Below, in pieces: positions 151-55,795 of a stretch of DNA of 64,000 nt (position 1 is its first letter; each line of letters starts with the position of its first letter). This DNA comes from an uncultured Gemmatimonadales bacterium (GTDB lineage: Bacteria > Gemmatimonadota > Gemmatimonadetes > Longimicrobiales > RSA9). The notes under the pieces are model-generated. The model saw only the letters and a list, made by a program, of their open reading frames with translations. It was not told the origin of the DNA and did no database searches. The position numbers and the translations under genes were made by a program. Location: NCBI GenBank assembly GCA_963798085.1, contig CAWCRS010000003.1, positions 713,573-777,572 on the forward strand. Reading direction: 5' to 3'.

Positions 151-2424
151 TCAGAGACTGACCTGCAGGCGATCCCCGTTGAAGGTGACGCGCCGGATGG
201 CGGTCTCACCGGCCAGGCGGACTTCAATGCGGCGACTCGCCGGCGGACGCATGTGCGACCCATCCGCAAGACGGAGTGTCAGTGTACGGTCCGCGTCGCG
301 CCACTCCATGAGCATGCGCATGCCGCCGTCCTTCTGATAATCGAGCGTCAGGCCATCGTCTTCGTACACGCTGGCCTGTCCATCCTGACCAGGATGAACC
401 ATGAGGGTGAGCGGTTCGTCGACGGGCTCGCTCGTGTACTGGCGCACGGGACCGAGCGGCAGGATGGCGCCGGCGCGCACGAAGAGCGGCGTCGTCTGCA
501 GATCGACAGGGCGCACGACTTCGCGGCCGCCTGCGAGGCGTTCGCTGGTCCAGAAGTCGTACCACTCGCCTGCGGGCAGCCAGACGGTGCGCCGGGTGAC
601 GCCTTTCTCGAGTACCGGCGCGACGAGCAGGTCACGGCCCCAGAGGTACTCGTCGGCGCGGGCCGCGGCGGCAGGGTCGTCGGGGTAGTGCAGCCAGAGC
701 GCGCGCATGACGGGCATTCCCGTGTCGTGCGTCTCGCGCGCGGCCGTGTAGAGATACGGCAGCAGGCGGTAGCGCAGCTCGAGGTATTTGCGGCAGATGG
801 GCTCGACCTGCGCGTTGTGCAATTCTTCGGGCGGCGGATTGCCGGCGCCGCCCGTGTAGTTCGCGATCTCGTCGTGACCCAGCTCGCCGGTGTTCCAGCC
901 CCATGGCAGACGCAGGTGCCAGGTGCGACCGTGCGCGCGGAACAGCGTGCAGAAGGCGCCGAACTGGAACCAGCGCACGTGCAGCTCGCCGGTGTACTCG
1001 GGCGTGGGCACGAAACCGCCGATGTCGGTGCCCCACCATGGAATGCCGCTCAACCCCGTGTTAATGGCGACCGCCACGTGCGTGCGCAGCGTTTCCCACG
1101 TCGAGTAGACATCGCCTGACCACAGGAATGCCGCGTACCTGGCCATGCCCGCATACCCGTTACGGTGCAGCGCGAAGGGTCGCTGGCCCGGGCGTAACAG
1201 TTGTGTTCCATCCCAGTACATGCGGATGCGAGCGAGGCGGGATGCAGCGTCGAGGCCATCGCCCTGATCGGGCCACCAGCCATCGATGCCCTGCTGGAAC
1301 ACCTTGCGATGGATGGGCCAGTAGCAGCCGACGCGCTGCTCGTCGGGCCAGTTCTGTCCCGAGCCGGTGGTGGCTGGTGGATCGGGGCAGGGGTCGCCGA
1401 CAGAGCCGATGAGGCGACGGCCTTCCAGCACGACGTGCAGCACGACGTGGTAGTGCAGCGCGTGCAGCTGGTCGAGCATGGCCTGCGGGTCGGGGAACAC
1501 CTTCGGGTTCCAGTCAAACTCGCCGTTACGCGTGTTCCAGCCCGACGGCGTGAAGCCGGTCCCGAGGTAGATCAGCGAATCACAGGGCAGCCGCTTTTCG
1601 CGGAAGGTGCGCGCCACCCACAGCACTTCCCCGGGTCCGGAGAGTGTGCGGTGCGACTGGTGGTAGCCGAACGACCATAGCGGCGGCAATTCGGGCCGGC
1701 CGGTCAGGCGAGCCCACTCGCCCATGATGGCGACCGGGTCCTGTGCTTCGACAATGAAGATGTCGAGCGGCAGCGCGGCGCCCGGGGGCGGTGTGAAGCG
1801 CGCGGGTGCGCTGCTGAGATCGAAGCTGCCCAGCGGCTGGTGCACATAGAGCGCCCAGCCGTCCGTGCTGACCAGCCACTGGATGGGGACGCGGCCACCG
1901 TGCGTGCGCAGCTGATAACCGCCCTGTCCGCTGCGCATGCTGTAGCTCGCGCCCCTGCGATCGAACTGCGGTCCGCCCTCGCCCATGCCGAGGATGGGGC
2001 CGCGGCCGGGATCGAACGTGATTTCGCCGGTGGCTTCGTCAATGCGCAGCTCCTGCACCATGCGCCCGTCCGGCCGCGCGATGCGCAGTCTGAGCGGCGC
2101 TTCCGCGAGCGCCACGCGGAACGCGCCCACGCTAACCGGACTGTTATCGGACGGGGCCACGCGTGTCGCCGGCGGGGGAACGGCTCCGACGAGCGCGCCA
2201 TCGTCCGGGATGGCACTGGCGGATGGGACAGCGGCCTGCACGCGGATGCGCAGGGTTGCGGGACTGACGGCGACCGCGGCGATCTCCACCGCCTGCCCGG
2301 CGATACGCAGCGCGGAGCTGCGCCAGCGCGCGGCAGGGCCGAGCAGGGCGAGCGCGGTGGACGAACCCAGCTGTCTTACGGCCTCGCGGCGCGAAATCGG
2401 GCTGCCTGCCTCGAAGTCTGTCAT
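151..2424 (-). CDS. glycoside hydrolase family 31 (alpha-glucosidase/xylosidase-like) with Tat-type signal
   Basis: 757-aa ORF. It has a twin-arginine-like leader SRREAVRQLGSSTALALL. GH31-type catalytic region motifs are present: GIDGWWPDQGDG, FLWSGDV, WWGTDIGGF. Confidence 0.8.
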   Translation of the reverse strand: MTDFEAGSPISRREAVRQLGSSTALALLGPAARWRSSALRIAGQAVEIAAVAVSPATLRIRVQAAVPSASAIPDDGALVGAVPPPATRVAPSDNSPVSVGAFRVALAEAPLRLRIARPDGRMVQELRIDEATGEITFDPGRGPILGMGEGGPQFDRRGASYSMRSGQGGYQLRTHGGRVPIQWLVSTDGWALYVHQPLGSFDLSSAPARFTPPPGAALPLDIFIVEAQDPVAIMGEWARLTGRPELPPLWSFGYHQSHRTLSGPGEVLWVARTFREKRLPCDSLIYLGTGFTPSGWNTRNGEFDWNPKVFPDPQAMLDQLHALHYHVVLHVVLEGRRLIGSVGDPCPDPPATTGSGQNWPDEQRVGCYWPIHRKVFQQGIDGWWPDQGDGLDAASRLARIRMYWDGTQLLRPGQRPFALHRNGYAGMARYAAFLWSGDVYSTWETLRTHVAVAINTGLSGIPWWGTDIGGFVPTPEYTGELHVRWFQFGAFCTLFRAHGRTWHLRLPWGWNTGELGHDEIANYTGGAGNPPPEELHNAQVEPICRKYLELRYRLLPYLYTAARETHDTGMPVMRALWLHYPDDPAAAARADEYLWGRDLLVAPVLEKGVTRRTVWLPAGEWYDFWTSERLAGGREVVRPVDLQTTPLFVRAGAILPLGPVRQYTSEPVDEPLTLMVHPGQDGQASVYEDDGLTLDYQKDGGMRMLMEWRDADRTLTLRLADGSHMRPPASRRIEVRLAGETAIRRVTFNGDRLQVSL

Positions 2425-2511
2425 CCCGCCGCGCTCCGCTCTCCGGTGTGAGACTGCGATGGTCGGACCGGAGAGTACGCGGCGGCGGTGATGCCTCGCC
2501 AGCGGCGCCGG

Positions 2512-5152
2512 TCAGCGAGCGGGCAGCGTGAAGGAAAAGAATGTTGCCCCGGCCGGGGCCGGAATCGAGCCACAGGGCGCCGCCGTGAGCGCGCACGATC
2601 TGGCGGGCCCGTGCCAGGCCGGTGACCGGCTGATCTGCCTCGCCGGTGAGCGGGTCGAAGATGGCGGCCTGCTCGTCGAGCGGGATCGGCTGGCCGTTGT
2701 CGACCACGGAGAACTGCACGGCGCTGCGCACTTCATCGGCGTACACGGTGACGCGGCCTTCGCGACCAGCGAGGCGGGCGGCGTTAGCGAGCAGTGTTGC
2801 GAACACCGCGGTTATGCGCTCCCGATCGACGAGGACAGCGGGTGCGTCGTCGTCCACTTCCGTATCCACGTGCGGGTGCGGGCCCGGCCTCGCGGTGAAA
2901 GCCTGCAGCGCGTCCTGAACCAGCTGCGCGGGTGAGAGCGGCTTCAATGTGAGTGCGGTGCGTCCTTCCTCCAGTGCCGTGAAGTCCAGCAGCTCATCGG
3001 CCAGGCGGCGCACGCGGGCGAGGTCAATGCTGGCGGCCGCGAGGCGGGCGCGGTCTTCACGGCTGCATTCGGGGGCGAGCGACTGGTCCAGCCGGTCCAG
3101 GTTGGAGGCCAGGCTGGCGAGCGGCGCGCGCAGCTCGCGGGAAGCGCGCGTCACGAACTCGGTCCTGAGCCGATCCATGTCCTCGCGCTGGCGCGCGCGG
3201 CGGGTTTCTTCCTCGAGCCGTTCGCGTTCGATGGTGGCGGCGATCTGGCGCGCGAAGACATCGAGCAGGTGCAGCTGCTCGGGATCGCGCAGGCGAGCCC
3301 CACTGGCCGGTTTCACGGCGAGCACGCCCACGGCGCCGCGCGCCGCCACCAGGGGCACGTGCAGGGCGGCGGCGCTGGGCAGGGTGTCGGTGCCGGCGCC
3401 GGCCGGCTTGCGGTGGTCGAAGGCCCACCGGGCGACGGCTAACTCATGGTTATCGAGTGACGGCCGGCCTGCCGCGGCGGCCACGTCCAGCCGGCCCTGC
3501 GCGTCCGGCAGCAGCACGGCTGCGTCGCTGCCGAACACGGCGGCAATGTGGCGCACGCCGGTCTGCAGGGCGCGATCCAGCTCGGGCGTCTGGCCCAGGT
3601 CGCGGCTCATCTCGTAGAGTGCGGCTGTCCGCTGTTCGCGGTGCCGCGCGCTCTGCGAGCGCAGCTTGAGTCGCGCCGTGAGGCTGGAGATGACGAGCGC
3701 CACGGCCAGCATCACGAGGAAGGTGATCACGTACTGCGTGTCGGAAACGGCGAAGGTGAGGTGCGGTGGCACGAAGAAGAAGTCGAACGCGGCGACGCTC
3801 AGGATGGAGGCCAGAATGGATGGCCGGCGGCCCAGGCGTGCCGCCACCATGGTGATGGCGAGCAGGAATACCATCACGATGTTAACGAGTTCGAACCAGG
3901 GCCGCATCGCGCTGCCGATGAGGGTGCAGGCGACGACCGCGAGCATGGCCCACAGGTAACCGCTGCGCGCGTCCTCGACGGGTGCAGCCACGCGTCGCGG
4001 CACGGCCTCCTCGCCCGGCTCGCCGCTGATCACGTACACATCGACGTCGCCGCTGGCGCGCACCACGTTGTCGAGCAGCGAGCCGAGGAGTCGGTCGCGG
4101 ATGCGCGTGTGCGCGGGCTTGCCCACGACCAGCTTGGTGACGTTGTGCGTGCGCGCGTAACTCAACAGCTCGGTGGCCGTGTCGGTGCCGCTGACACTCA
4201 CCGTGTGGCCGCCCAGCTGTTCGGCCAGGCGCAGTGTTTCCCAGACGCGGGAGCGGTCCGCCTCGGACCAGCTGGTGTACGCCGGTGTTTCCACGAATGC
4301 GGCGATCCATTCGGCGCCGAGCCGTTCCGCCATGCGCTTGGTGGCGCGCACCAGCCGTTGTGAGCTGGGCGCCGCGCCCACGGCGACGAGCACCCGTTCG
4401 CGCACCGGCCAGGTTTCGGCGACACCTGTGGCGCGGCGATACACCTGCATCTGGGCGTCGACGCGTTCCGCGAGGTGTCGCAGCGCGAGCTGGCGGAGTG
4501 CGATGAGGTTTCCCTTGCGGAAGAAGGACTGCGCCGCTCTCGTCGCCTGCTCCGGCACATAGACCTTGCCCTCGCGCAGGCGCTGCAGCAGTTCCCCGGG
4601 TGGCAGATCCACGAGTTCGATCTCGTCCGCCTGCTCGAGCACGGCGTCAGGAACGGTTTCGCGCACGCGCACGTGTGTGATGCGGGCGACGACATCGTTC
4701 AGGCTCTCGAGGTGCTGCACGTTCATCGCCGCGTACACGTCGATGCCGGCATCGAGCAGTTCCTCGACATCCTGCCAGCGTTTGACGTGGCGCGAGCCGG
4801 GTGCGTTCGTGTGCGCCAGCTCATCGACAAGGATGAGTGCGGGGTGGCGTGCGAGTGCGCCGTCGAGGTCGAATTCCGTGAGCGTGACGCCGCCGTGCGC
4901 AATGCTGCGGCGAGGCAGTACTTCGAGGCCGTCGAGCAGCGCTTCGGTCTCGGCGCGGCCGTGCGTTTCGATGACGCCGACCACGACATCGGTGGCGGCG
5001 CGCTGCTGCAGATGCGCGGCTTCGAGCATGGCGTAGGTCTTGCCCACGCCTGCCGCCGCCCCCAGGAAGACCTTGAGGCGGCCGCGCTTTCGTTCGGCTT
5101 CGACCTTCACCTGCGCGAGCAGGGCGTCTGGATCGGGGCGTGCGTTCTCCAC
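2512..5152 (-). CDS. kdpD: KdpD-family sensor protein (KdpD N-domain + Usp-like + 4-TM + GAF + degenerate His-less kinase core); 3' frameshift
   Basis: N-terminal KdpD P-loop (GAAAGVGKTYAML), then a TM block, GAF, DHp and CA-like region. The H-box reads SRELRAPL, with Arg (CGC, 3137-3139) where the phospho-His is expected. The G1 and G2 boxes are degenerate. The track ORF runs on to 2144 into the GH31 gene. The canonical kinase end ...GATFFSFTLPAR* lies in another frame (ORF 2512..2736). One nt at the C4 run 2547-2550 restores it. Confidence 0.8.
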
Positions 5153-5205
5153 GCTAACCGTTCGTCAGAAGTCGGCGTCCCCTGTGCAACCGTGCGCGCT
5201 CTGCA

Positions 5206-12674: not shown

Positions 12675-13370
12675 TCAGTCGAGCGCGCGAAACCGGTAGC
12701 CAACGCCAGGCTCGGTGAGGATGAGTCGAGGCCGCACGGGATCCTGTTCGATCTTGCGGCGCAGATTGGCGACGTGCACGCGCAGGTACGCCTGGGCATC
12801 GCCCGCGGGCTGGCGCCAGACTTCGCGGAAGATCTGCTGGTGCGTGAGCGTGCGGCCCGCGTGGCGCAGGAAGGTGCGCAGCAGATCCCACTCGGTGGGT
12901 GTCAGGTGGATTTCCTCGCCGTCGCGCGTGAGTGTGCGCCGGCCGGAGTCGATGCGCAGTCCGTCAATGCCGATTTCGTCGCGCGCAGGCGAGGCGCCCA
13001 GTTGTGCGCGGCGCAGTTGCGCACGCACCCGGGCGCGCAGCTCGGGAGGACTGAACGGCTTGGTGACGTAGTCGTCGGCGCCGGCATCGAGCAGCTCGAT
13101 CTTTTCGCGCTCGGAATGACGGGCGGAGAGCACGATGATGGGTGCGCCGGACCACTTGCGCACTTCGCGGCAGACGCTGGCGCCGGGCGCATCGGGCAGG
13201 CCGAGGTCGAGTATGATCAGCGCGGGTCCTTCGGCGGCGGCGAGGTCGATGCCGGCGCGGGCCGAGTCGGCCTCGAGCACGTGCAGCCCTTCCTCTTCCA
13301 GCACGTGGCGCACGACGCGGCGGATCTGCGGCTCGTCATCAATGACGAGGACCCTGCCGGTTTCCGTCAT
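12675..13370 (-). CDS. kdpE: OmpR-family response regulator (KdpE-like)
   Basis: Receiver domain (VLVIDDEPQIRR ... LIILDLGLPD) plus a winged-helix C-terminus (LTPTEWDLLR ... GVGYRF). The internal ATG at 13370 is taken as the start. The track ORF extends to 13493. Confidence 0.85.
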   Translation of the reverse strand: MTETGRVLVIDDEPQIRRVVRHVLEEEGLHVLEADSARAGIDLAAAEGPALIILDLGLPDAPGASVCREVRKWSGAPIIVLSARHSEREKIELLDAGADDYVTKPFSPPELRARVRAQLRRAQLGASPARDEIGIDGLRIDSGRRTLTRDGEEIHLTPTEWDLLRTFLRHAGRTLTHQQIFREVWRQPAGDAQAYLRVHVANLRRKIEQDPVRPRLILTEPGVGYRFRALD

Positions 13371-13716
13371 GGTCGAACTCCGCTCGGATGAAGCCTGCGC
13401 GGGAGATGTTAGCCGGTTCGGGGGTTGCCGCCAGTCAGGCGGTGGCTCGGCGCGCCGAATCGTGATCTTGCGGCCCCCCTCCACCCGATACATATGTTGA
13501 GGAGTCCGGACTGAGTTCCGGCGTCATGCCCGTGAGGAAGCCCGCCTCCCGGCGTACGGACTGTGCGCAAACTGCGCCCGGTCCGTTTCTTTCCGCGCGA
13601 CATCGTTCATCCCGAAGTCGGGCTGAGGCCTGTCCATGGCGGCTTCCCGGTCGAAATGCGTCCGGGATCGCTGGTAGTGGCGGCGCGGTTCCTTCACCGG
13701 TGTGGAGGATGGTCCT

Positions 13717-16700
13717 ATGAGTGGCAGGTGGCGGACGGGGAGCCGCTTCCGGCGGGTCGCGGCGATTTCGCTGGCGGCACTGTCGGTGGTGGTGGCGACG
13801 GCACTGTCCGCGATCTCGTGCGCGCAATCGGTAACGGACGAGCGCGGCGGACCGGGCCTGCGCATTGTTCCGGATTCAGTCGACCTTTTCCTCGGCGATA
13901 ATGTTCAGTTAAGCGTTCTCGGGTCCACGCAATCCGCAGTCTGGTCGAGCAACAACGCACAGGTCGCCACCGTCGTCGGCAGTACCGGTTACGTGACTGC
14001 GGTGGGACCGGGCACCGCGGGCATTACCGCTGTGGCCGGCTCCGCGTCGGCAACAGCCAGAGTGCGAGTCGATCTGCGGCCAGCGATCGGTTTCTCCAGC
14101 CCGGGCGTGGATTTCACCGTCGTGCGCGGACAGGCGGACCCTCCGCCGCAGACGGTTCACATTGGCAACACGGGTGGCGCCACACTCAGCGCGCTCTCGA
14201 TTACGGGGATCCAGTACGGCGAGGGGCAGCCGAGCGGCTGGCTGCAGGCGACACTGACCAGCGCCAATCTGCCCAGCGACCTCGTGCTCACAGCCAGGTC
14301 AGCGGGGCTGGATGCCGGCACGTACACGGCTTCGGTGCGGGTCCAGGCGGGCGCGGCATCCAACTCGCCGCAGAACATCGGCGTCAGGCTAACGATCACC
14401 CCCGCGGCCACGATCGAGCTGAGCACGACCGACGTGAACTTCTCGGCCGTCGTGAACGGGCCGGATCCCTCGCCACAACAAGTGACGGTGAGCAATGGCA
14501 CGACAGCAACGACGCTCGACGGGCTGGACCGCAGTATTACCTACGGCGCGGGCCAGCCCGCAGGCTGGCTGACGGCGACACTGAGCGGTGCACAGGCTCC
14601 GTCGATCCTGCGGCTGCAAGCCGCAGTCGCGGGGCTTCCGGCCGGCACGTATGCAGCCACCGTGACGCTGCATACGAATCAGGCGGGTGTGGCTGCGCGT
14701 TCACTGACCGTTGGTTTGACGGTTTCCAGCGTGCGAGTCGCCAGCACCGCGATTGCTCCCAAGAGCGTAACGCTCGACCTGGGCGGCACGTTCCAGTTCA
14801 CGGCGACGGCCCGGGATGGCGCAGGTAACACGCTGTCAGGCAGGCAAACGACGTGGACAGCGCGGGATCCGGCCATCGCGCGGGTCGACAGCGGTGGCCT
14901 GGTGCGGGCCGTGGCGGCAGGTGTGACGTTCATCGTGGCCGATGTCGAGGGAGTGCGGGACAGCGCCGAGGTCACGGTGTCCGCCCCGGCACTCACGGTA
15001 GCGCCCGCACAGGTCCAGCTTTCGGCGCAGATGGGCAGTAATCCGCAGCCCGTGACTGCCACGATCGCGAGTGCGGGCAACAGTGTGATCCAGGGATTGC
15101 GAGTGGCGGCCATCGCGTATGGTGGCGCGGCGCAGGGCTGGCTGCTGCCAACGCTCAATGCAGCGACCACGCCGGCGCTGCTCCATCTGTCCGCGAATGT
15201 GGCCCAGCTCGCGGCCGGCACGTACACGGCCTCGCTGACGATCGCCTCGGACCAGCCCGGCGTCACACCGGCCACGCTGAGCGTCAGCCTCGTGCTCACG
15301 TCACAGTCCAGCCCACCGCACATTCACGTGACGAGTGCAGCGCTCGTGTTCAGCGGTGCAGCGGGAGGCACGGATCCTCAGCCACAATCGATCGGGATCA
15401 GCAATAGTGGCGGCGGCGCGCTGACGGGTCTCAGCGTCGACTATGCCGGCAGCAAGCCAGCGTGGCTCGATGCGTCGCTCAGCAGCAGTAATGCGCCGGC
15501 GAATCTCACCGTGCAGACGCATGTTACCGGGTTGGCCGCGGGAAGCTACACGGCCGGCGTGCTCATCTCTTCAGCGCTGGCCGACAATTCGCCGGTGCAG
15601 GTGGCGGTGACACTGAACGTGACTGCGGCAGCGACCACGACACTCTCGGTCACGGGGGGCGGCGCGGGTAACGGCAGTGTTGGTTCGGCGCCGGGCGGCA
15701 TCAGCTGCACGATCACGGCGGGCGCGGCGGGCGCGAGTGGCTGCAGCGCAGCCTTCCCCACGGGCACGTCGGTGACCCTGACCGCCACACCCGCAACAGG
15801 ATTCGACTTCGTCGGCTGGAATGGCGGGTGCGCGGGGCCGGCGGCCGCATGCGTGGTCACGATGAACAGCAATCAGTCAGTGAGCGCGACGTTCGAGTCG
15901 TCGAGCGCGACGTCGTTCCCGGTCACGATCGGTGCCAACAGCAGCGATGGCGCAGGCGAGGTCTATAGCACGTCTGGCTCCGGCTTCATCGACTGCTTCT
16001 TCCGCGACGGCGGGGGCGCGGGCACGGGCAACTGCACGGGCGATTTTCCGCGCGGTGACACGGTGGTGCTCACGGTGTATCGCGTGCCCGGATTCGTCGG
16101 GAGTCCTGATGACGAGTTCCTGGGCTGGGGCGGTGATTGCGCGGGAGCGGGCGCGGCGTCGGACTGCAGGCTCGTGATGGATCGCAGCCACAACGTGACG
16201 GCGAGATTTCGCGCGGTGTACGGCATCCACGTGAAGCGGCCGACGACGCAGCTTGCCGGGCTCACATCCGAGGCGGGCCGGATCGTCTCCGATCCAGCGG
16301 GGATCGATTGCACGTTCGTGGAGGACTTTCTGCACCTTCAGACCAGTGGTACCTGCGACCTGGCAGTGTACAGCCATACGCCCGTCCGGCTCACCATGAT
16401 CGGCGCGGACACGACAGCGTATGTCGGGTTGTTCCGCGGCCCAGGCTGCCAGACCGTGGCGAACCCGTGCTCCTTCGTCAGCACGGATGTCGATTTCTAT
16501 CCGATCTTCGCGCTGACCGACATCACTCTCTGGCCCGGTGTGACGGTGGGCACGGGCCATGTCACGTCGACGCCCGCGGGTGTGGATTGTATCGTGCCCG
16601 GCTTGTGCACATCGCCGCCCTTCAAGCGCGGCACGAGCGTGACGCTGATGGCGCAGCCGGACGCGAGCTCATTGTTCATCAGCTGGACCGGCGACTGCAC

Positions 16701-17379
16701 GGGCACGGCGCTGACGTGCACCATGGTGATGGACGCGCCCAAGACCGTGAGTGCGAACTTCGGTCCACTCACGCCGCTGATTCATCTTTCCAGCCCATCA
16801 CTCACGTTCGAGGCGAGGCCGGGCACGGTGACGGCAGCGCAGATCGTGAACATCACGAACGCGGGCATCGACACGGTGCGCGGTCTCACGGTGACAGTGC
16901 CGTCCTGGATCACGGCTTCGCTGAACAGCACGAAAACGCCGGCCACGCTCACCCTCACCGCCAATGCCGCGGGTCTGCCCAACGGCACGCAGAACGGCAC
17001 AGTCAGCGTGTCCTCGAGCAACGCGAGCAATTCGCCGCAGCCGATCCTGGTCCGCTTCGACATCGGCTATTCGTTCTCGCAGGACATTCTCCCGGCACTG
17101 GGCGCCACCACATTCAGCGGGTATCCGGGCGTGGCGGTGGTCGCGTGTGCGAGCTGCCACCGCTCGCCGCCGGTCAATGGTGCGCATTCCGACTTCACCA
17201 GTTATGCGGGTGTGCTGACGCAGGTCAGTCCGGGTGACCCGAACAGCAGCCCGCTGGTCCAGCGGATGGTGCTGCCGGCCGGGTCGGCGGGCGCGATGTC
17301 GCCGAGCGGGCAGCGCCATCCCCAGGGCATCATCGACATGATCAGGGACTGGATCCTGCAGGGTGCACGGGCCAACTGA
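13717..17379 (+). CDS. large secreted/lipoprotein-like repeat protein: Big_2 domains, five ~105-aa Ig-like repeats, four Cys-containing ~90-aa repeats, C-terminal CxxCH haem domain
   Basis: A GGAGGA sits 8 nt upstream of the ATG at 13717. The signal ends in ...LSAISCAQS. Repeats share the pattern P.P(Q)..V.(I/V)SN.G...L.GL...I.Y..G...GWL.A.L......P..L.L......L.AGTY.A.V.... The other repeat type has the pattern G.V.S.P.GI.C...C...F..GT.V.L.A.P...F..W.G.C.G...C...M. The tail carries CASCH (17146-17160) and ends ...IDMIRDWILQGA, like the planctomycete-type cytochrome c domain. Confidence 0.7.
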   Translation: MSGRWRTGSRFRRVAAISLAALSVVVATALSAISCAQSVTDERGGPGLRIVPDSVDLFLGDNVQLSVLGSTQSAVWSSNNAQVATVVGSTGYVTAVGPGTAGITAVAGSASATARVRVDLRPAIGFSSPGVDFTVVRGQADPPPQTVHIGNTGGATLSALSITGIQYGEGQPSGWLQATLTSANLPSDLVLTARSAGLDAGTYTASVRVQAGAASNSPQNIGVRLTITPAATIELSTTDVNFSAVVNGPDPSPQQVTVSNGTTATTLDGLDRSITYGAGQPAGWLTATLSGAQAPSILRLQAAVAGLPAGTYAATVTLHTNQAGVAARSLTVGLTVSSVRVASTAIAPKSVTLDLGGTFQFTATARDGAGNTLSGRQTTWTARDPAIARVDSGGLVRAVAAGVTFIVADVEGVRDSAEVTVSAPALTVAPAQVQLSAQMGSNPQPVTATIASAGNSVIQGLRVAAIAYGGAAQGWLLPTLNAATTPALLHLSANVAQLAAGTYTASLTIASDQPGVTPATLSVSLVLTSQSSPPHIHVTSAALVFSGAAGGTDPQPQSIGISNSGGGALTGLSVDYAGSKPAWLDASLSSSNAPANLTVQTHVTGLAAGSYTAGVLISSALADNSPVQVAVTLNVTAAATTTLSVTGGGAGNGSVGSAPGGISCTITAGAAGASGCSAAFPTGTSVTLTATPATGFDFVGWNGGCAGPAAACVVTMNSNQSVSATFESSSATSFPVTIGANSSDGAGEVYSTSGSGFIDCFFRDGGGAGTGNCTGDFPRGDTVVLTVYRVPGFVGSPDDEFLGWGGDCAGAGAASDCRLVMDRSHNVTARFRAVYGIHVKRPTTQLAGLTSEAGRIVSDPAGIDCTFVEDFLHLQTSGTCDLAVYSHTPVRLTMIGADTTAYVGLFRGPGCQTVANPCSFVSTDVDFYPIFALTDITLWPGVTVGTGHVTSTPAGVDCIVPGLCTSPPFKRGTSVTLMAQPDASSLFISWTGDCTGTALTCTMVMDAPKTVSANFGPLTPLIHLSSPSLTFEARPGTVTAAQIVNITNAGIDTVRGLTVTVPSWITASLNSTKTPATLTLTANAAGLPNGTQNGTVSVSSSNASNSPQPILVRFDIGYSFSQDILPALGATTFSGYPGVAVVACASCHRSPPVNGAHSDFTSYAGVLTQVSPGDPNSSPLVQRMVLPAGSAGAMSPSGQRHPQGIIDMIRDWILQGARAN

Positions 17380-26756: not shown

Positions 26757-26993
26757 TTACGCGGGGTCGGGCGCGGTTTCCGCGGGGCCGAGGAGTTCGC
26801 GCAGGGAATCGGTACGCGTGGCGCGGCGGTTCTCGTCGGCGATCTGCTGGGCGATTTCCTCGCGCACGATGCCGACGCTGCTGGGCGCTTCGATGCCGAT
26901 GCGTACGCCGCGGCGGCCGCACTGCAGGATGATGATGCGGATGCCGCCGGCGATGAGCACGGCGCTGCCCGGTTGGCGATTCAGAACCAGCAT
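26757..26993 (-). CDS. csrA: carbon storage regulator CsrA
   Basis: 78 aa reading MLVLNRQPGSAVLI...GIRIIILQ...VRIGIEAPSSVGIVREEI. It is the last gene of the flgK operon. Confidence 0.9.
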   Translation of the reverse strand: MLVLNRQPGSAVLIAGGIRIIILQCGRRGVRIGIEAPSSVGIVREEIAQQIADENRRATRTDSLRELLGPAETAPDPA

Positions 26994-28417: not shown

Positions 28418-28915
28418 TCAGACCTGCCGATCCAGGAGCGCGCCGTGATCAGCGCCTCCCAGCCCTCCACCCGAAGTCACTGCGCCGCTCAGGACCTGGA
28501 TCAGTCGATTGCCCTGCTCCAGCGCGCCCTCGAGCACGCGGCGGTTGATGCGGATCTCACGGGCCAGAATGCGGGCTTCGTGACTCACCCGATCCCTCGT
28601 TTCCGCGAGTTCCAGCGTCATCTCATCTCCCAGTATCGTCTCCAACTGGTGCAAAGGCGTAGTTTCCGAGCCGGTCAGGATCGCCATCAGGGTGCGGCGG
28701 CGGATCTGCGCCTCGCGCAGCGTGCCCAGCACGCGGTGCGCGGCGAAGACGCTGCCATCCACCACTTCGAGGTCATCCGCGGCAATGCCTTCCCGCTGGC
28801 GGCGCAGAATCCCGTGCAGCTCGCTCAGCAGCCGCTCTTCCGCGGCCAGCGCCTCGGTGAGCAGCGCGCTGTCAGGCGGCGCCAGCTCCAGCACGGTGTT
28901 GTCCGCGCGCATCAT
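28418..28915 (-). CDS. FlgN-like export chaperone (hypothetical)
   Basis: 165-aa helical protein between flgI/J and flgK. The call rests on synteny and composition only. Confidence 0.4.
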   Translation of the reverse strand: MMRADNTVLELAPPDSALLTEALAAEERLLSELHGILRRQREGIAADDLEVVDGSVFAAHRVLGTLREAQIRRRTLMAILTGSETTPLHQLETILGDEMTLELAETRDRVSHEARILAREIRINRRVLEGALEQGNRLIQVLSGAVTSGGGLGGADHGALLDRQV

Positions 28916-30261
28916 TGGCCGCCTCCGGGGTTCTGCTGCTGCGATGGCAGCTTGTCGACCAGCTGGCGATACAGCGCATCACCGATCCGGTGCTGCTTCA
29001 CGGCGGCCGCCTCGGCGACGTGCTCGTCCATCATGCTCGTGAACATGGCTTCGCCTTCGCCGCCGTCGAGCGCGCCGTCCTGTGGCACCGTGTCGCGCAT
29101 GGCCTTGAACAGCTGTTCCATGAACACACCCTCCAGCTGGCTCGTCGCCTTGCGCAGCCGGGCCTTGTCATCATCCGGTCCGCCGGCACCCAAACCCGGC
29201 GTTAGCGAGTCGAGTGGGCGGATCATTCGGACTTTCACCTCCGCCGTCAGCGCGCCCACGCGGTGCAGCGATTCGAAGATCGCCGCGATCACCGGTGCGG
29301 GTGCACCTACGGCCTGCAGCGCGGACGCGACATCCTGCACACTCGCGCCTGGCGCCACTCGTACTTCGCCGGCCGCAGGCTGATCCGTACGGGTCGCGCC
29401 CACGGTCAGGGTCAGGCCGCCGTGGCTCACCACGCCCGGCCCCACTGTCACTTCGCCACCAACCACGACCGTGCCGTCGCGTGTATCCACCAGCACCGTC
29501 GCCGCGGCGTCGCGCTTCACGCGCAGGTCCGCGATCTTCGCCAGTGTCACCGCAGTGCCACCGGCCGAGTCCTTCAGCGTCAGAGCCACCGCGCCGGGGT
29601 CTTCCACCTGCGCGCTGTTCTCGCCGATCGCCGTGTTGATCGCTTCCGCGATTTTCACGGCGGTCCCTATGTTCGGCTCACGCAGCAGCAACCTTGAGGG
29701 CGAAGTGACGGCCGGTTTGGGCAGGTCTGCCAGCAGCAGCGCGCCATCCGGAATTCTCGCCGTCGTTTCCACGCTGTAGCCGCCGCGCGCAACTTCGCCC
29801 TCGCTCAGCAGTAACGGTCCCTGCGCCGTGGCCACGGCGGGACTGCCGGGATCGAAGACGAGTGGCGTCGCCCAGAGCACACCGCCGCGCAGGGAAGAGG
29901 CATCGCCCACGGAGGCGACGTGCACCTCGAAGCGACCGCCCGGCCGCAGGAACGGCGAGGCCTCCGCCGTGACCAGCACGGCGGCGACGTTGCGCGTGCG
30001 CAGCACTTCCGCCGGCACCTCGATGCCGAAGTTGCGCAGCAGGTTCACGACGGACTGCACGGTGTGCCGCGCGCCGAAGCTGCCAATGGCGCGATCGCCT
30101 GTGCCGTCCAGACCCACGACCAGGCCGTAGCCGACGACGCGCACCGGCACGTTCACGTCGGTTATGGCCAGATCGCCAATGCGCGCGTCCTGCGCGCGTG
30201 CCTCGCTGCCGCCTGCAATGAGGGCGGCCGCGAGCACAACGGGGAGAAGCGTTTGCCTCAT
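28912..30261 (-). CDS. flgI: P-ring protein FlgI fused in frame to a FlgJ-type rod-binding domain
   Basis: It has a Sec signal (MRQTLLPVVLAAALIAGGSEARA). The FlgI body runs through ...HRVGALTAEVKV. There is no stop, and then come 104 aa from an internal ATG (29224-29226): ...KATSQLEGVFMEQLFKAMRDT...GEAMFTSMMDEHVA...IGDALYRQL. That segment matches the Rod-binding / FlgJ N-domain pattern. Confidence 0.8.
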   Translation of the reverse strand: MRQTLLPVVLAAALIAGGSEARAQDARIGDLAITDVNVPVRVVGYGLVVGLDGTGDRAIGSFGARHTVQSVVNLLRNFGIEVPAEVLRTRNVAAVLVTAEASPFLRPGGRFEVHVASVGDASSLRGGVLWATPLVFDPGSPAVATAQGPLLLSEGEVARGGYSVETTARIPDGALLLADLPKPAVTSPSRLLLREPNIGTAVKIAEAINTAIGENSAQVEDPGAVALTLKDSAGGTAVTLAKIADLRVKRDAAATVLVDTRDGTVVVGGEVTVGPGVVSHGGLTLTVGATRTDQPAAGEVRVAPGASVQDVASALQAVGAPAPVIAAIFESLHRVGALTAEVKVRMIRPLDSLTPGLGAGGPDDDKARLRKATSQLEGVFMEQLFKAMRDTVPQDGALDGGEGEAMFTSMMDEHVAEAAAVKQHRIGDALYRQLVDKLPSQQQNPGGGQ

Positions 30262-30902
30262 GGCCAGAGCATTCCCAGGATGCGGGCGAAGATTCCCTGC
30301 TTCGGCTTGCCCAGATCGCCCTTGGATTCGTACGCCAACTCGGCGTTAGCCAGACGCCACGACTCGACAATGTTGCGGGCCGAAATGTCCTGCGCGCGTA
30401 CCCAGCCCGTGATGGTGACCTTCTGCACCGCCTTGTCCAGCTTCAGCGTGCGCGTGCCTTCGATCTTCAGCAGACCGCCCGGCTCGACCGAGACCACGCG
30501 CGCCGAAAGCTCGGTGGTCAGGCCGTCGCGCCGGTCCGCCTGCCCCTTCACATTGGACGAATTGTCCAGCGATGTGCGGAAATCGACGTTCTTCTGCGTG
30601 CCGCTGGGCAGATTCGCGCCCAGGCTGCCTGTCGTGGAGCGGCCCGCCTGATCGACGTTGGACTTCTGTGCCAATGCGATCGTCTGCGCATCCACGAGCA
30701 GCGTCACCACATCGCCCACGCGGAAATCGCGGCGGTCCGTGGTCCAGTTGCCCAGGCCCGGCCGCAGCGCGGGCTTCGTGCTGTCCGCCTGCTGCGTGGC
30801 CGCCTGTCCGCCCGTCTGTCCCGCGGCCTGCGCCCTTGCGGGCGAGGCGCTTGCGGACAGTGCTGTCAGCAGCAGCAGCCAGCGTCCTGCGTGCCTGCTC
30901 AT
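30258..30902 (-). CDS. flgH: L-ring protein FlgH (no Cys, so not lipidated)
   Basis: 214 aa with a signal peptide and FlgH family core (RDFRVGDVVTLLV ... LKIEGTRTLKLDKAVQKVTITGWVRAQDI). Confidence 0.85.
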   Translation of the reverse strand: MSRHAGRWLLLLTALSASASPARAQAAGQTGGQAATQQADSTKPALRPGLGNWTTDRRDFRVGDVVTLLVDAQTIALAQKSNVDQAGRSTTGSLGANLPSGTQKNVDFRTSLDNSSNVKGQADRRDGLTTELSARVVSVEPGGLLKIEGTRTLKLDKAVQKVTITGWVRAQDISARNIVESWRLANAELAYESKGDLGKPKQGIFARILGMLWP

Positions 30903-44828: not shown

Positions 44829-46086
44829 CTACCGCTTGAGGTTGACCAGCTCCTGGAGCATCTCGTCGCTGGTGGTGATCACGCGCGCGTTGGACTGGAA
44901 GCCGCGCTGCGCGGTGATCAGGTTCGTGAATTCCTGCGCCAGGTCGACGTTGGACATTTCGAGCGCGCCGGACGTGACGACGGACTGGCTGCCTTCGCCG
45001 GCGAAGCCCAGCACGGCGGCGCCGGAGTTGGGCGATACCGTGTACATGTTGTCGCCCACGCGGATCAGGCCCGACGGATTGTTGAAGTCGGCCAGCACCA
45101 GCTGCGCCAGCGTCTGTGTCGTGCCGTTGCTGAATGCGCCCACGATCGTGCCCGTCGGATCAATGCTGATGCGCTCGAGCAGACCCATCGTGTAGCCGTC
45201 CTGCTCTTTCAGCACCGCGGTCGAGGGCCCGGCGAACTCGGAAAGGCCGTTGATCTCGCCTGCCGTGCCGAACGTCAGCGTGACTTTCTGCGAGGCGGCG
45301 AAACCGGCGGGCGTGAACTCGAAGTCCACGGTCTCGGGATCCAGCAGCGAGCCATTCGTGTCGAACGTCACGGTACCGGTGTCGTTCACGTACGTCGAGC
45401 CGGGCTCGTTGTTGGTCGTCGTGATCGCGTAGTCCCACTCGTTGGCGTTGGCGTTCTTGGTGAACTCGATGTTCAGGTCGTGCTTGCCGCCCTGCTCGTC
45501 ATACACGGTGATCGAATGTGTTGCGCGTCAGGCCCTGCGCCGCGCCCGCATCGAGGTTGCCGCCCAGGACCGCGTTCTCGGTGGCGTGGGCCGGCGCCTT
45601 CTGGCCGAAGGGCAGCTTGATGTCGTCGATCGTGTCGGTCAGCACGCCGTTCACAGGCACGCGACCCTGCACGATGAAGCCGTTCGTGGACGCCACCAGC
45701 TTGCCCGACGCGTCCAGCTGGAACGCGCCCGAGCGCGTGTAGAAGCGCTGCGTGCCGTCGGACACGACGAAGAAGGAATCGCCCTGGATGGCCAGGTCGG
45801 TGTCCACGCCGGTCGTCTCGAGGTTGCCCTGCGTGAACATGGCGTCGATGCTGCCGATGTTCATGCCCAGGCCGATCTGGATCGGGTTGCGGCCGCCGGA
45901 CACGTTGGTGGCGCCGCCCGGCGGACGGCTCGCGCCCTGCACGATCTGCGCGAACGCTTCCTCGAATGTCACACGACTCGACTTGAACGCCACCGTGTTC
46001 ACGTTGGCGATGTTGTTGCCGATCACGTCCATTTTGACCTGGTGATTGCGCAGGCCGGACACGCCGGCGAACAGAGAACGCATCAT
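44829..46086 (-). pseudogene. flgE: flagellar hook protein FlgE, one frame disruption
   Basis: The N-fragment is ORF 45499..46086 (MMRSLFAGVSGLRNHQVKMDVIGNNIANVNT...). The C-fragment is ORF 44829..45506 (...ITVYDEQGGKHDL ... NLITAQRGFQSNARVITTSDEMLQELVNLKR). The junction lies at about 45510-45525. Confidence 0.85.
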
Positions 46087-46109
46087 TTCGGATTCTCCTC
46101 GTTGCCTGT

Positions 46110-46787
46110 TTACTGGCTGATTTCGATGACGTTGCCGAGCGGGATCGTGATCGAGCCGCTCGACAGCACCGGCCCGCTGGCGGTGTACCTGACTCCGTCG
46201 ACGCGCAGTCGCGAGTACGTGGTCACGCTGACCGCCGTGCCCGCGCTGTCCTTCACATCGAGGCTGTAGGTGTACTGACCGGCCGGCACGTTGCCGACCA
46301 GCTTGCTCAGGTCGATGTTCTGGTCACCGGCATCCAGCCGGCCCACATCGTAGCGCGCCACTTCCTTGCCCGTGTCGTCCTTGATCACGACCTGACCGAC
46401 GCCACCCTCGCCGCCCACATTCACCTTCACATCGAGCGGGCCGCTGGCCGGCATCTGCAGCGCATCACCCTGAATGAGCACGCTCTTGCCCAGCAGCTGG
46501 GCTGCGGTGCTGGCATTGATGCTCTGGATCAGCGAATCATTGCCTGCGCTCTGCGCCTTCAGCTCGTCGCCGATGTTAATGAGCTGTTCGACCGCCGAGA
46601 ACTGCGCCAGCTGAGCCGCCATTTCCTTGGGATCCGCGGGATTCATGGGGTCCTGGTTGCGCAGCTGGGATACCAGAAGCTGCAGGAAGTCGTCCTTGCC
46701 GAGGACGCTGCCTGCTGTGGCCGCCGCCGCGCTCGACGTCGAGCTGGCTGTCGTGCTGCCGCCGGCACTCGTGATGGGATCGATCAT
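46110..46787 (-). CDS. flgD: hook capping protein FlgD
   Basis: Contains LGKDDFLQLLVSQLRNQDPMNP plus an Ig-like C-domain. The ATG at 46787 overlaps the fliK stop (ATGA). The track ORF extends to 46856. Confidence 0.9.
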   Translation of the reverse strand: MIDPITSAGGSTTASSTSSAAAATAGSVLGKDDFLQLLVSQLRNQDPMNPADPKEMAAQLAQFSAVEQLINIGDELKAQSAGNDSLIQSINASTAAQLLGKSVLIQGDALQMPASGPLDVKVNVGGEGGVGQVVIKDDTGKEVARYDVGRLDAGDQNIDLSKLVGNVPAGQYTYSLDVKDSAGTAVSVTTYSRLRVDGVRYTASGPVLSSGSITIPLGNVIEISQ

Positions 46788-48877
46788 TTGCCATTCTCCT
46801 TGCCATGTCTCCGGGCGTTCCGGTGTTCCTGCTGCGCGCCGCCCTGGCGGGCCCACGCGCTTTCGTTCTGGTTGCTGCCATTGCCTTTGTTGCGCGACGC
46901 GTCCCTGCCCGCCTGCGGCATCACCAGCGGCGAGGCCTCGCCTGCTTCGCGGATCAGTACCGAAGCATCCAGCCCCCGCCGTTCGAGGATCTGACGCAGT
47001 TCGCCGGTGTGCGTGGCCAGCTGCGCCGCGGCCGTCGGATCAGTCACATCAATGGCCGCATTCACGCTGGTGCCGCGCAGGCCCACGCGGATGCGGGCGG
47101 CATCACTGCCATCGGCGCCCGTGATGTGGAGTGTGACGCCGGAGGCAGGCGAGGCTTGCGCCGCATCCTGCAGCGCGAGTACACGCGCCACGCGTGCGCC
47201 AATGTCCACGCCCTGCGCTGCGCCCGCGCCCGCCGCCTGCTGCGGCTGCGATCCGGCCACGGCGCGCCAGAGCGCGCGGGCCGCGTCGTCGCCCTGCAAA
47301 CCTGCGGTCAGCGGATCCGCGCTGCTGCGACCATCACCATCACTGCTCGTGCCCTGCTCGCGCAGAGCGGCCGCCAGCTGGCTGGCCCGTGTGTTGCGCG
47401 CGGTCAGACTGCCCGTGTCCGTGGTCTGCGGCGCACCGGCGGTCGTGTTGACCGTGGCCCCGGATGCGGCCGCGAGTGCGCCTCGCGCCGCCGCAGTGAC
47501 CGCGGCCGGTGCCTCCAGCAGGCTGGCCACGCGCGCCACCTGCGCGGTCGCCGCCACTGTCGCCACCGGCGCGGGCGCCGAAGCGTCTCCGCTCATGACC
47601 GGCGGGGCTGCGGAGCGGCCGCCTTCCAGCGCACCGTCAGGAGCCAGCTGGCGAATGGTCTGCATGTCGCCCGCCGCGCCGCGCAGTTCGATGTGACCGG
47701 GATCGGACGGGCCCAGTGTGCTCAGTCCTTCCTGTGCGCAGAGCTGCGCCAGGCGGGCGTACTGGGCGTCGTCGCCTCCCTCGATGACGACATTGGCCGC
47801 GAGGCCGGCAGTGTGGTTCGAGTGCTTCGTCCACGTCACCGTCTGGCCCGGCTGCGTGCGACCCTGCGCGTACAGCGCATCCTGCCGCGGCTGCGAGCGC
47901 CAGGTCTCGACCACGTGCACATCCTCGCCGAATTCCTGCTTCATGCGCTCGATCACACGCTCCAGCTTCGTGCGGAACTCGGGCGCCAGTGCGTCCAGCG
48001 AACGTTGCACGTGTGTGCTGTCCGTATCCGTCGCCACCGGTTGCGCCAGCGCCGCGGCTGCGGCCTGTGCGGCAGCCGCGCTGTCCGCGGCATTGGAGGC
48101 GACACTGTTCTTCTGTGCGCCGGCGTTGTCAGAGGCGGCCGCACCGCTGCCAGCGGTCGGGGCCGGAGTGCGGTTGTCTGACTGGCTGTTAGGATCGTCC
48201 GTCGCCGTGCCGCCGCTGGCGCGGCCTGCCGCGGAGGCGCTGCGGCGCGACCCCTGGTCCGTGGCTGTGGCATCATCCAGCGCCTGCGCGGTGGCCCGTA
48301 TGGCTGCCCGCCGCGTGCCCGGGTCGCCCGGCTCACTCGCCGTTGCCTCCGGCTGCATCAGGCCGGCCGGCCTTGCCGTGCCGCCATGGCCCGCGTCGCT
48401 GGCCGGGGCCCGTGCGCGGGCCAGCAGCAGTCCGAAGTCCGGACTGCCTGACACGGTATTATCGTTGCCCGGGTACGCCGCCGCCTGGGCGAGGCGTCCG
48501 TTGGCATTGCTGCCGTGGGCGCGCGTCTCGACGGACGCACTCGCGCCCGACAGCAGGCCGGCCACGCCGGCTTTGAGACGTCCCGCGGCTGCACGCGCTT
48601 CACCCGCATCCTGCATTGCGTCACCGCCTGTGTCATTGGTACTGCTGCCTGTTGCTGACGCGGCACCCGTCGCCCCGTCACCCACCACCTCCGCGTCATC
48701 CATGAAGCGGGCGAGAAGACTGCCAAACCCCGGTACCGCCCTGCCCCGTTCAGCGCGCAGGCGGACGTCTGACGACGTCGCCTGCAGACCGGCCAGGGCC
48801 CGCTGCCCCGCGTGCTCACGCAACGGTGCAGAGTTCGGCGATTGCGCGCCGATCGCGGAGCCCGGGATCATCGCCAT
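46784..48877 (-). CDS. fliK: hook-length control protein FliK with an embedded M15/LAS peptidase-like domain
   Basis: 697 aa. The N-terminus is FliK-like (GFGSLLARFMDD) with low-complexity ruler sequence. Residues 293-400 carry the peptidase-like pattern. The C-terminus is a T3S4/Flg_hook-type domain (GVTLHITGADGSDAARIRVGLRGTSVNAAIDVTDPTAAAQL...LRQILERRGL). Confidence 0.8.
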   Translation of the reverse strand: MAMIPGSAIGAQSPNSAPLREHAGQRALAGLQATSSDVRLRAERGRAVPGFGSLLARFMDDAEVVGDGATGAASATGSSTNDTGGDAMQDAGEARAAAGRLKAGVAGLLSGASASVETRAHGSNANGRLAQAAAYPGNDNTVSGSPDFGLLLARARAPASDAGHGGTARPAGLMQPEATASEPGDPGTRRAAIRATAQALDDATATDQGSRRSASAAGRASGGTATDDPNSQSDNRTPAPTAGSGAAASDNAGAQKNSVASNAADSAAAAQAAAAALAQPVATDTDSTHVQRSLDALAPEFRTKLERVIERMKQEFGEDVHVVETWRSQPRQDALYAQGRTQPGQTVTWTKHSNHTAGLAANVVIEGGDDAQYARLAQLCAQEGLSTLGPSDPGHIELRGAAGDMQTIRQLAPDGALEGGRSAAPPVMSGDASAPAPVATVAATAQVARVASLLEAPAAVTAAARGALAAASGATVNTTAGAPQTTDTGSLTARNTRASQLAAALREQGTSSDGDGRSSADPLTAGLQGDDAARALWRAVAGSQPQQAAGAGAAQGVDIGARVARVLALQDAAQASPASGVTLHITGADGSDAARIRVGLRGTSVNAAIDVTDPTAAAQLATHTGELRQILERRGLDASVLIREAGEASPLVMPQAGRDASRNKGNGSNQNESAWARQGGAQQEHRNARRHGKENGK

Positions 48878-48888
48878 GCCGGAACCGA

Positions 48889-49446
48889 CTACCGCCCGGC
48901 CAGCAAAGCCTTCGCGATGGCCGTGCCCCGTTCACCCTTGAACTTGGCCAGGATCGCTGCGGCCTTGCGTTCCGAGAGAGTCAACAGCACTGCCTTCACC
49001 GGAGCATCCTCCAGCGGTTCCAGGATGCGTGCCGCTTCTTCCGGCCGCATCGCTGCGAGAATGCGCGCCAGCCGCGCGGGAGGCGCATTGTGCGCGCTGA
49101 GTGAATCGAGGCGCATGCTGTCCGCGGGCGAGGTCTCCGGTGGCTTCGCGCCCGCGCTGGCCGCTGCGTGCTGCGCCTCGCCGGCTGCGGCTTCGTGCGC
49201 CTGCGCGCTGTCGCCCGTCATGGCGCTGGCCGCCGCCGAGTCAGGCTGCGCGTCTTCTGCCTGCCCCGTCGCGTTCGCCGCGGAATCCGCGGCCAGCGAG
49301 TCGGCGCGCAGAGAATCGGCCTTGAGCGAGCCGGCCGCCATTTCGGCGGCGTACCGGGTCGCGGCCTTGCGCATGGAAACGGTGGTGCCGCCGCCCGCGC
49401 CCAGCGCGAAGCACACGGTCGCGGCAATCACGACTTTCATGTTCAT
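48889..49446 (-). CDS. flagellar-locus protein with MgtE-N-like domain (YlxF/FlbB position)
   Basis: 185 aa with an N-terminal TM and the C-terminus [44 protein letters not shown]. It lies between fliJ and fliK, as in the Bacillus fla/che operon. Confidence 0.5.
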
Positions 49447-49904
49447 GAAACGTCATCCTCCTGCTGGCGGCGCGTGAACCGGGCGAGCGCCACAGCATCC
49501 ATCGTCGTGCGGTCCAGCCGCTCCTCGCCTTCCCGCCACAGTGTGAGATAGCGCTCGCGCAGCCGGTCCATGACCTGACGCTGCGTTAGAGCGTGCCGGA
49601 ATTCATTGCGCGCCGTGTCCACGCGCGCGCCGGCTTCTTCCTGCGCCTTTTCCGCAACCGCCAGGTGTTCGTCGAGCTGCGCAATGAACAGCGCCATCTG
49701 CTGCAGCGTCCCTGCCGGCGCGGGTGTGCCGCTGCCACGGCTGGTGCCTTCGACCCCGCGATTGCGCGCGGCTTCGATGGCCAGGCGCTTCTGTTCGGCC
49801 AGTACCGCCTCGTTGTGCGCTTCCGCGAGCCGGGTGGCACTTTCCTTTTCCCGCTGCTCCCGTACTTCGAGCACCTTCTGCAGGCGAAACCGGAATCCAC
49901 TCAC
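49443..49904 (-). CDS. fliJ: flagellar export chaperone/stalk FliJ
   Basis: 154-aa coiled-coil protein ([26 protein letters not shown]...). The GTG at 49904 overlaps the fliI stop (GTGA). In the track it is hidden in the 3' part of ORF 49443..50798. Confidence 0.65.
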
Positions 49905-51238: not shown

Positions 51239-51916
51239 CGACCAGCCGGTGGTAGATGCGTTCCAGCCATGGTCGACGCGGCCGTCGATCACGCGGTGTC
51301 GGCCCTTCGACCATGCAGCCGCCCGGCTGGATGTCGGGGTCGGCGACCCAGCGCGACTTCGCGCCCCGGTGCGATCGAGATGTTGCCGCCATCCGCGGCT
51401 GTGGCGGAGAGTCATGGACAGATCCTGCGGGTGCAGGCGCACGCGCAGCGGCTCGTCCACCGGGAACTGCGCCAGCGCCCGCCGTGTCAGATCGGCGACA
51501 ATGTGCGCGTCACCGGTCAGCTCGCGTCCAACCAGCTGTTTGGCCACGGCCACGGCCAGCGCGCAGATGTTCTCGCGCGCGTTGTCCACCCATGTGCCCT
51601 CGCCGGCGCTCAGCTGTTCCATCACGCTGGCCAGCGCACCGAGCGCCGAGCGCACGCCCGCGGCTTGACGCTGCATGGTCTCGGCGGCGCCTTCGTCGAA
51701 GCCGCGCTGATAGGCTTCTTCCAGCTCGGCCTGGCGCTCGAGGGCCGCGCGCCGGTCGGCTTCGCGCCGCTCGCCCACGCCACGCAGTGCTTCGCCCGGT
51801 GCGGGCGGCATGGGTTGCGCGGCCACCTCGTCGGGCGACCACGTGTCGGGCACCACGCCGACCTTTTCCGGCAGCGGCGCCAGCGATGTCGCGATCCAGT
51901 CAGAGGACCATGTCAT
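51231..51916 (-). pseudogene. fliH: flagellar export regulator FliH, about 4 frame disruptions in the 3' end
   Basis: ORF 51035..51916 reads as FliH up to ...LRVRLHPQDLSM. The rest is recovered only by frame hopping: LSATAADGGNISIAPGREVA / WVADPDIQPGGCMVEGPT / RVIDGRVD / WLERIYHRLVDG*. The predicted stop is at 51231-51233. Confidence 0.75.
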
Positions 51917-52893: not shown

Positions 52894-52937
52894 GTCCTCG
52901 ATCGGCGAGCGCCTGCGCGACGCGGCGGGTTGTCACG

Positions 52938-54405: not shown

Positions 54406-54442
54406 TCCGGCATCGTCGCCACGGCTCAGGAATTCTCTCTGA

Positions 54443-54780: not shown

Positions 54781-54782
54781 GC

Positions 54783-55115
54783 TCAGACCGTCCGATCAAT
54801 GCGCGCGCCGCGCACCAGGCCCGGCGGAATGTTGGCGCTGCCCGGTCCGTAGGTGAGCGGCCCCGACGACTGCAGCCGCGAGAAGAACTGCCGCTCCTCC
54901 GCCGACAGCACACTCCACAGCTCGGGATCCGTGCCCGGCGGCGCTTCCGCCGGAATCGCGCCATTGTCGGCGACGATGCCCGTCGGTGTCTGCTTCGTTG
55001 CCGGCACATTCGCCGGCAGCCGCTGCAGCCCCGTCGACTCCGGCCTCGCCGGCCGAGGCCCGATGCCGCCCGGCCCGTAGCTGCCAAACCCGCCGTTAAC
55101 CCCCTGAATCGCCAC
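54783..55115 (-). CDS. hypothetical 110-aa protein between flgC and fliE
   Basis: It starts at a GTG preceded by AGGAGC. It is Pro- and Gly-rich and contains PELWSVLSAEERQFFSRL. No family was recognised. Confidence 0.4.
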   Translation of the reverse strand: MAIQGVNGGFGSYGPGGIGPRPARPESTGLQRLPANVPATKQTPTGIVADNGAIPAEAPPGTDPELWSVLSAEERQFFSRLQSSGPLTYGPGSANIPPGLVRGARIDRTV

Positions 55116-55222
55116 TGTTGCTCCTCGTTCCTTCGTCTGCCTTACAGTCTGTTATGGCAATCCCGCGCGCCCGTCTCTCTCGTTTCCTTCTGCCCGACAT
55201 TGCGTTTCTGGTTCAATCTGTT

Positions 55223-55793: not shown

Positions 55794-55795
55794 GA

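Follow-up and report, generated by a model that had tools for sequence, protein, structure and literature searches.

Does the flagellar gene cluster described here encode a P-ring protein fused to a rod-binding protein, or two separate proteins whose genes appear joined through a single base? In the window, by which we mean the whole 64-kb stretch of DNA that was analysed, one open reading frame of 449 amino acids on the minus strand (28912..30261) carries both a FlgI and a Rod-binding domain by Pfam. The 449-aa protein is already public as a two-domain FlgI and Rod-binding entry (P0001), and is mistakable for a new architecture.

Results

The frame is uninterrupted across the junction and Pfam recognises a domain on either side of it, which confirms the original prediction that FlgI here runs without a stop into a FlgJ-type rod-binding tail. 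Residues 27-344 match the whole FlgI profile (PF02119, positions 1-343 of 343) at 248.6 bits (cut-off 25.3), and residues 386-433 match the whole Rod-binding profile (PF10135, positions 1-51) at 46 bits (cut-off 25.1). Read as codons, the junction is GTG AAA GTC CGA ATG ATC (V K V R M I), and the TGA in cgaATGAtc is, as had also been claimed, out of frame and unread. The tail of the 449-aa ORF extends from M346 to Q449 and so has the predicted length of 104 aa, but the predicted end of FlgI at ...VKV has to be moved by one residue: the arginine before the methionine belongs to FlgI, because FlgI in the relatives ends in ...AEVKVR. A C-terminus of the form ...VKVR, ...VTVR or ...VRVR was found in all eight relatives. 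The 449-aa ORF is a complete FlgI followed, with no linker, by a complete 104-aa FlgJ. By eye, the FlgI N-terminus, MRQTLLPVVLAAALIAGGSEARA/QD, resembles a putative Sec signal peptide.

The tail has the features of a single-domain FlgJ, being about 100 aa long, directly after flgI and without a C-terminal peptidoglycan hydrolase domain. NCBIfam FlgJ models match it at their N-terminal 80 or so positions only and score far under their cut-offs, and the equivalog model for dual-domain FlgJ (TIGR02541) gives 44.3 bits where 193 are required, over profile positions 17-97 of 294 only. Neither a muramidase or glucosaminidase half nor any other hydrolase half was detected in the 449-aa ORF with Pfam and NCBIfam profiles.

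Taken apart at the junction, the frame consists of flgI proper (29227..30261, minus strand), with 345 codons to ...AEVKVR, and of flgJ (28912..29226, minus strand), which encodes the single-domain rod-binding protein of 104 aa plus a stop and begins at the ATG of an ATGA overlap. The extra A of an AA doublet (29226..29227, minus strand), where the relatives have a single A (cgATGA), shifts the TGA of flgI away from its reading frame. Both neighbouring genes on the minus strand are joined to the pair by ATGA overlaps, flgN (28418..28915) at the stop of flgJ, and flgH (30258..30902), whose stop overlaps the flgI start. That such an overlap is usual in this locus, as originally stated, is borne out by the presence of NTGA stop/start overlaps at 15 of the 48 minus-strand stops in the window, those of flgA/flgH, flgH/flgI and flgJ/flgN among them. 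In the 3' end of flgI lies a Shine-Dalgarno-like GGAGGTGA (29235..29242, minus strand), 8 nt upstream of the flgJ ATG (7 nt in relatives), and GGAGG-type motifs also lie upstream of flgH, flgN and flgB; from its sequence and position, GGAGGTGA is a putative Shine-Dalgarno element serving flgJ.

Comparison of this junction in relatives, which had been proposed together with the prediction, showed that flgI there ends at a stop codon and that flgJ is offset in frame from it, the outcome named beforehand as refuting a genuine fusion. The junction reads (C/A)GATGA in seven of seven relatives read as DNA (L001-L007, 55-85% amino acid identity), and the window alone reads CGAATGA, with exactly one A more than all of them. 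In the alignment to L001-L003, CCGAATGATC stands against CCGATGATC, that is, GTC CGA TGA T.. against GTC CGA ATG AT.. in the window, while L004-L007, four Gemmatimonadota metagenome-assembled genomes at 55-64% identity, have CGATGA or AGATGA. Three more contigs, for which gene coordinates only were used, have a 4-nt overlap of flgI and flgJ. Relatives among the GTDB species representatives reached 64% identity at most. The nearest homologues, at 85%, 78% and 76% identity and below, are proteins of 333-357 aa with FlgI only, and their flgI is followed, with a 4-nt overlap, by a separate Rod-binding gene of 97-98 aa. A 488-aa ORF in L004 was considered as a second fusion and rejected; the flgJ frame is merely open upstream in GC-rich DNA, and flgI stops at CGATGA.

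The Gemmatimonadota flgI-ATGA-flgJ pairs (L001-L007, and P0002-P0014 with their neighbouring Rod-binding proteins of 97-119 aa) are like the window in the end of FlgI at ...AEVKVR and in the start of flgJ. The SD-like GGAGGTGA is likewise common to the window and its closest Gemmatimonadota relatives, and the gene order flgG-flgA-flgH-flgI-flgJ-flgN-flgK-csrA is common to the window, L002 and JGI contigs. The relatives differ in having no counterpart of the extra A, so that the TGA is read and the two ORFs are separate. Judged from these sequences, the ATGA stop/start overlap is the ancestral and conserved state of the flgI/flgJ junction.

A conserved FlgI-Rod-binding fusion architecture was not found. 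Among the best 120 homologues, PF02119 and PF10135 occurred together only in the query itself (the singleton cluster P0001, on one contig of 1.10 Mb). A HMMER search of 1.84 billion proteins gave no match past query residue 345 in the best 150 representatives, the ten longest of which are FlgI only. A 199-aa query spanning the junction gave 86 matches, each of them FlgI-only or Rod-binding-only and none both; this search missed P0001 and the FlgJ of L008, and is a weak negative for near-identical FlgI fragments. No two-domain protein besides the query was present in the approximately 350 homologues listed. A junction with A or AA was absent from the JGI metagenome contigs scanned, and exact look-ups with the fused protein, with FlgH and with a 110-aa ORF (54783..55115) returned no exact match on record.

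The junction is not the only place in the window where a single base alters a reading frame. A codon-usage HMM run over the window flagged frame changes that lacked a proper gene boundary, and the breaks were confirmed by Pfam and by reading of motifs. At least 14 other single-base frameshifts lie in conserved genes within the 64 kb, affecting kdpD, flgE, fliI, fliH, fliG, fliF (twice), flgC and a sigma-54 activator. All indels that could be pinned to a base are one nucleotide in size, and the majority of those located lengthen an A or a T (in kdpD, flgE, flgC, probably fliG, and the intergenic site 56378), the junction insertion being of the same type.

All the sites that follow are on the minus strand. 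In kdpD, an insertion of A to AA (2544..2545) removes the canonical end ...GTFFSFTLPAR and its stop; the frame reads ...DSGPGRG, and TFFSFTLPAR with the stop follows in the next frame. The flgE gene (44829-46323) is split at about 45505-45513 into an N-terminal motif with D1 and a part with D2 and the C-terminus, a split that likely comes from a T to TT insertion in ...AACACATTCGATCACC.... An extra C at 50109 throws fliI out of frame and gives rise to what looks like a FliI-FliJ ORF (49443-50822), with ATP-synt_ab at residues 8-217 and FliJ at 327-449. In fliI and at the fliH/fliI boundary (50806-51420) there are at least eight shifts in about 650 nt, with conserved motifs intact between them. 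In fliG the break at about 52640 leaves FliG_N in one ORF and FliG_M with FliG_C in another, and fliF runs through three frames, with changes at about 53899 and 53980 (GVQSAR / VHIAINESS...TLRG / GTRPGEELVD). An extra A at 55545 splits flgC between its N- and C-terminal rod motifs. The sigma-54 activator, a response regulator, is broken at 57511-57513 inside its AAA+ domain (...EMRLDLQA / KLLRVLQEQEFERVGG), with Sigma54_activat positions 1-112 on one side and 110-167, the lid and the HTH on the other. These frameshifts are unevenly distributed, with about 13 in 12.8 kb (44.8-57.6 kb) versus one, the junction, in about 25 kb of other flagellar genes (19.6-44.8 kb).

Further irregularities were observed alongside these. 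In kdpD (2144-5164, minus strand) the insertion lies 11 codons before the natural stop, and the ORF runs on for about 350 nt into a GH31 gene (151..2511). At the start region of fliE (54754-54800, minus strand), the ATG (MSAIRV...) comes after an upstream stop and is in a frame other than that of the FliE body (GVGAVQSGG...); from the sequence, this may be another one-base indel. On the plus strand, a stretch at 59921-61098 switches from frame +1 to +0 at about 60771 with no start codon nearby and no Pfam match to either ORF, and may represent a further indel in a gene without a Pfam match. A response regulator and histidine kinase pair (12675-12901) was rejected as a frameshift, as the two genes have a normal 29-nt overlap.

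Searches for exact protein matches retrieved three independently assembled Logan contigs that represent the same population, each of them from run ERR11718635. L009 (window 55221 to approximately 56790) carries an intact FlgC of 174 aa with both rod domains, and has neither the window's extra A at 55545 nor its extra T at 56378. L010 (47342..50279) is without the extra C at 50109; in it the 3' part of fliI is unbroken up to a GTGA overlap with fliJ, which is a separate gene of 153 aa. L008 (27860..29226) has flgJ called as a separate 104-aa gene and covers about 1.4 kb on the flgJ side of the junction, with two synonymous differences and no indel relative to the window. Across the 5.9 kb compared there are three indels, and in all three it is the window that has the additional base. 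In flgC, the substitutions that separate the window from Logan are for the most part non-synonymous and depart from the consensus residue. More widely, a patch of poor consensus at 50070-57600 (minus strand), worst at 50806-51420, has many non-synonymous differences from the Logan contigs, versus differences of 0.15% or less, all synonymous, in its flanks.

L008 begins at the first base of the flgJ ATG (window 29226), immediately beside the extra A. A chance contig break at that precise base has a probability of roughly 1 in 1000, and a start exactly at the ATG would follow if the reads contain both G/ATGATCC, the normal form, and A/ATGATCC, the form with the extra A, as expected of a de Bruijn unitig. 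The break suggests heterogeneity between reads at the critical base, in which either allele could be the true one.

Discussion

It is very likely that the extra A at the junction is a consensus insertion (assembly) error, and that the true arrangement is a FlgI of 345 aa and a FlgJ of 104 aa with an ATGA overlap. The real DNA would then have the junction of all relatives, ...GTC CGA TGA TCC.... Translation of a Sec-type FlgI, 345 aa long, would stop at this TGA, and a separate single-domain FlgJ of 104 aa would start at the ATG, overlapping the FlgI stop by 4 nt, its initiation presumably by termination-reinitiation coupling and/or the SD-like GGAGGTGA. A spurious change of A to AA at 29226/29227 would put the TGA out of frame and merge two complete ORFs. 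That the junction A itself is an erroneous base is inferred from the relatives, the other indels and the independent contigs taken together: the junction indel is found in none of seven relatives by DNA (with three more by coordinates), the contig has other indels, and the Logan contigs lack those that could be compared. The alternative that had been offered from the outset, an error of 1 nt immediately before the ATGA, is thereby supported, the relatives differing by exactly one A. The apparent fusion is almost certainly spurious, and flgI and flgJ themselves are unremarkable representatives of families already described.

The extra A may instead be a real and recent strain-specific +1 insertion, perhaps polymorphic, with the fused ORF neutral or deleterious and the other flagellar lesions also real; we regard this as unlikely, and it is the best of the remaining explanations. 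FlgJ could in that case still come from the internal Shine-Dalgarno and ATG. The window sequence itself reads CGAATGA, and the contig is otherwise clean around the junction, where the local error rate should be below the window average because most frameshifts cluster at about 50.07-57.6 kb. The break of L008 at the junction base fits two alleles, an A/AA polymorphism, in the reads, and the off-consensus non-synonymous substitutions in flgC are such as relaxed selection would give. The junction is also the sole position at which an insertion spares both proteins whole, and selection on a true mutation would favour such a site. Against a real insertion, the frameshifts are strongly clustered and not spread across all flagellar genes, and the non-flagellar kdpD bears the same A to AA lesion. 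Pseudogene decay in real bacterial genomes is deletion-biased and varied in size, whereas the indels pinned here are all single-base and most of those located are insertions. The many shifts in fliH and fliI, at least eight in some 650 nt, nevertheless leave conserved motifs intact between them, and in the nearest independent assembly flgC is whole and the 3' part of fliI is free of the shift.

A functional FlgI-FlgJ(N) fusion, in which a Sec-exported FlgI would carry the rod-binding domain to the periplasm, possibly alongside a free 104-aa FlgJ, is far less probable. The open frame with both domains complete is what such a protein would require, the strong SD-like GGAGGTGA before the internal ATG would permit both products, and the peptidase-like module in the FliK-position ORF discussed below could mean that cell-wall functions are unusually arranged in this lineage. 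The fusion is, however, conserved in no relative, the closest being at 85% identity, and has no other example in the roughly 350 homologues listed; its origin is a single base within an ATGA overlap that is conserved. With fliF, fliG, flgC, flgE, fliH and fliI frameshifted, moreover, the contig as written could build no flagellum for a fusion to act in. After its type III export, FlgJ works at the end of the rod as this grows, a role that fits poorly with tethering to a P-ring subunit. The genuine Sec-delivered fusion, one of the two alternatives originally put forward, is not upheld; every relative has separate flgI and flgJ genes. Programmed frameshifting or readthrough at the junction was rejected, as a slippery site is absent and the relatives simply have the stop.

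Under the assembly-error explanation, this Gemmatimonadota flagellar cluster encodes FlgI and a single-domain FlgJ that stands alone, which is nothing out of the ordinary, and the value of the case is mainly cautionary. One base inserted at a 4-nt ATGA overlap silently fuses two whole genes rather than breaking one, and since errors of this kind break no gene, they escape the usual checks for truncated genes. Given the many frameshifts, the contig should be polished before its gene calls are relied on, above all at about 50-58 kb. In the very improbable event that the extra A is real and the product functional, it would be a newly arisen fusion re-routing a type III substrate through Sec, with free FlgJ also made from the internal Shine-Dalgarno and ATG. 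Indels that fragment genes are a recognised problem of long-read assembly (PMC12007338, PMC8442456), and the window resembles such assemblies in its pattern of indels, namely clustered single-base changes that split genes or remove stops and that, wherever a comparison could be made, an independent assembly of the population lacks. A fusion made at a 4-nt overlap is a less noticeable variety of this error.

A stand-alone single-domain FlgJ accompanied by a separate lytic enzyme is known from delta- and epsilon-proteobacteria and spirochetes, and dual-domain FlgJ from most beta- and gamma-proteobacteria (PMC8517470). The suggestion that the halves of classical FlgJ have been redistributed through a fusion is not supported; the stand-alone single-domain protein is an already known state (PMC8517470), and every relative has it. 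The FlgJ of the window is like the single-domain FlgJ of Borrelia burgdorferi and the delta- and epsilon-proteobacteria (PMC8517470) in being about 100 aa long, with Rod-binding only and no glucosaminidase half. In the dual-domain FlgJ of Salmonella and E. coli, a rod cap joined to a beta-N-acetylglucosaminidase, the N-terminal rod-binding region is homologous to the FlgJ of the window, which differs in the absence of the hydrolase half.

Systems with single-domain FlgJ work with a peptidoglycan-lytic partner, and in the window the FliK-position ORF, with its M15-like module, is no more than a lead to one. This ORF (46784-48931, minus strand; 715 aa) lies upstream of flgD, and its peptidase-like module, of the M15/VanY-like (LAS-type) kind, spans residues of about 320-430. 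The peptidase module originally predicted in FliK was recovered as a weak match, reaching PDB 2vo9 (L-Ala-D-Glu peptidase) at E 7.8e-6 and scoring 16.8 bits with Pfam VanY, which is under the cut-off. The motifs SNHTAGLAAN and DPGH are present, with Asn in place of the usual Asp of H-x(6)-D. The ORF has only a faint match to Flg_hook (E 0.035), and its sequence is identical in the independent contig L010. On these sequence similarities, the module is a candidate for the peptidoglycan-lytic enzyme with which the single-domain FlgJ would work.

Other parts of the window were noted in passing. A second flagellin-like gene with fliW (58110-59725, plus strand) and csrA downstream of flgK (26757-26993, minus strand) are parts of a FliW-CsrA-flagellin regulatory set. 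Between the kdp and two-component genes and the che/flagellar cluster lies a gene (13678-17379, plus strand) for a protein of 1,233 aa with Big_2 and InlB B-repeat (Flg_new_2) domains.
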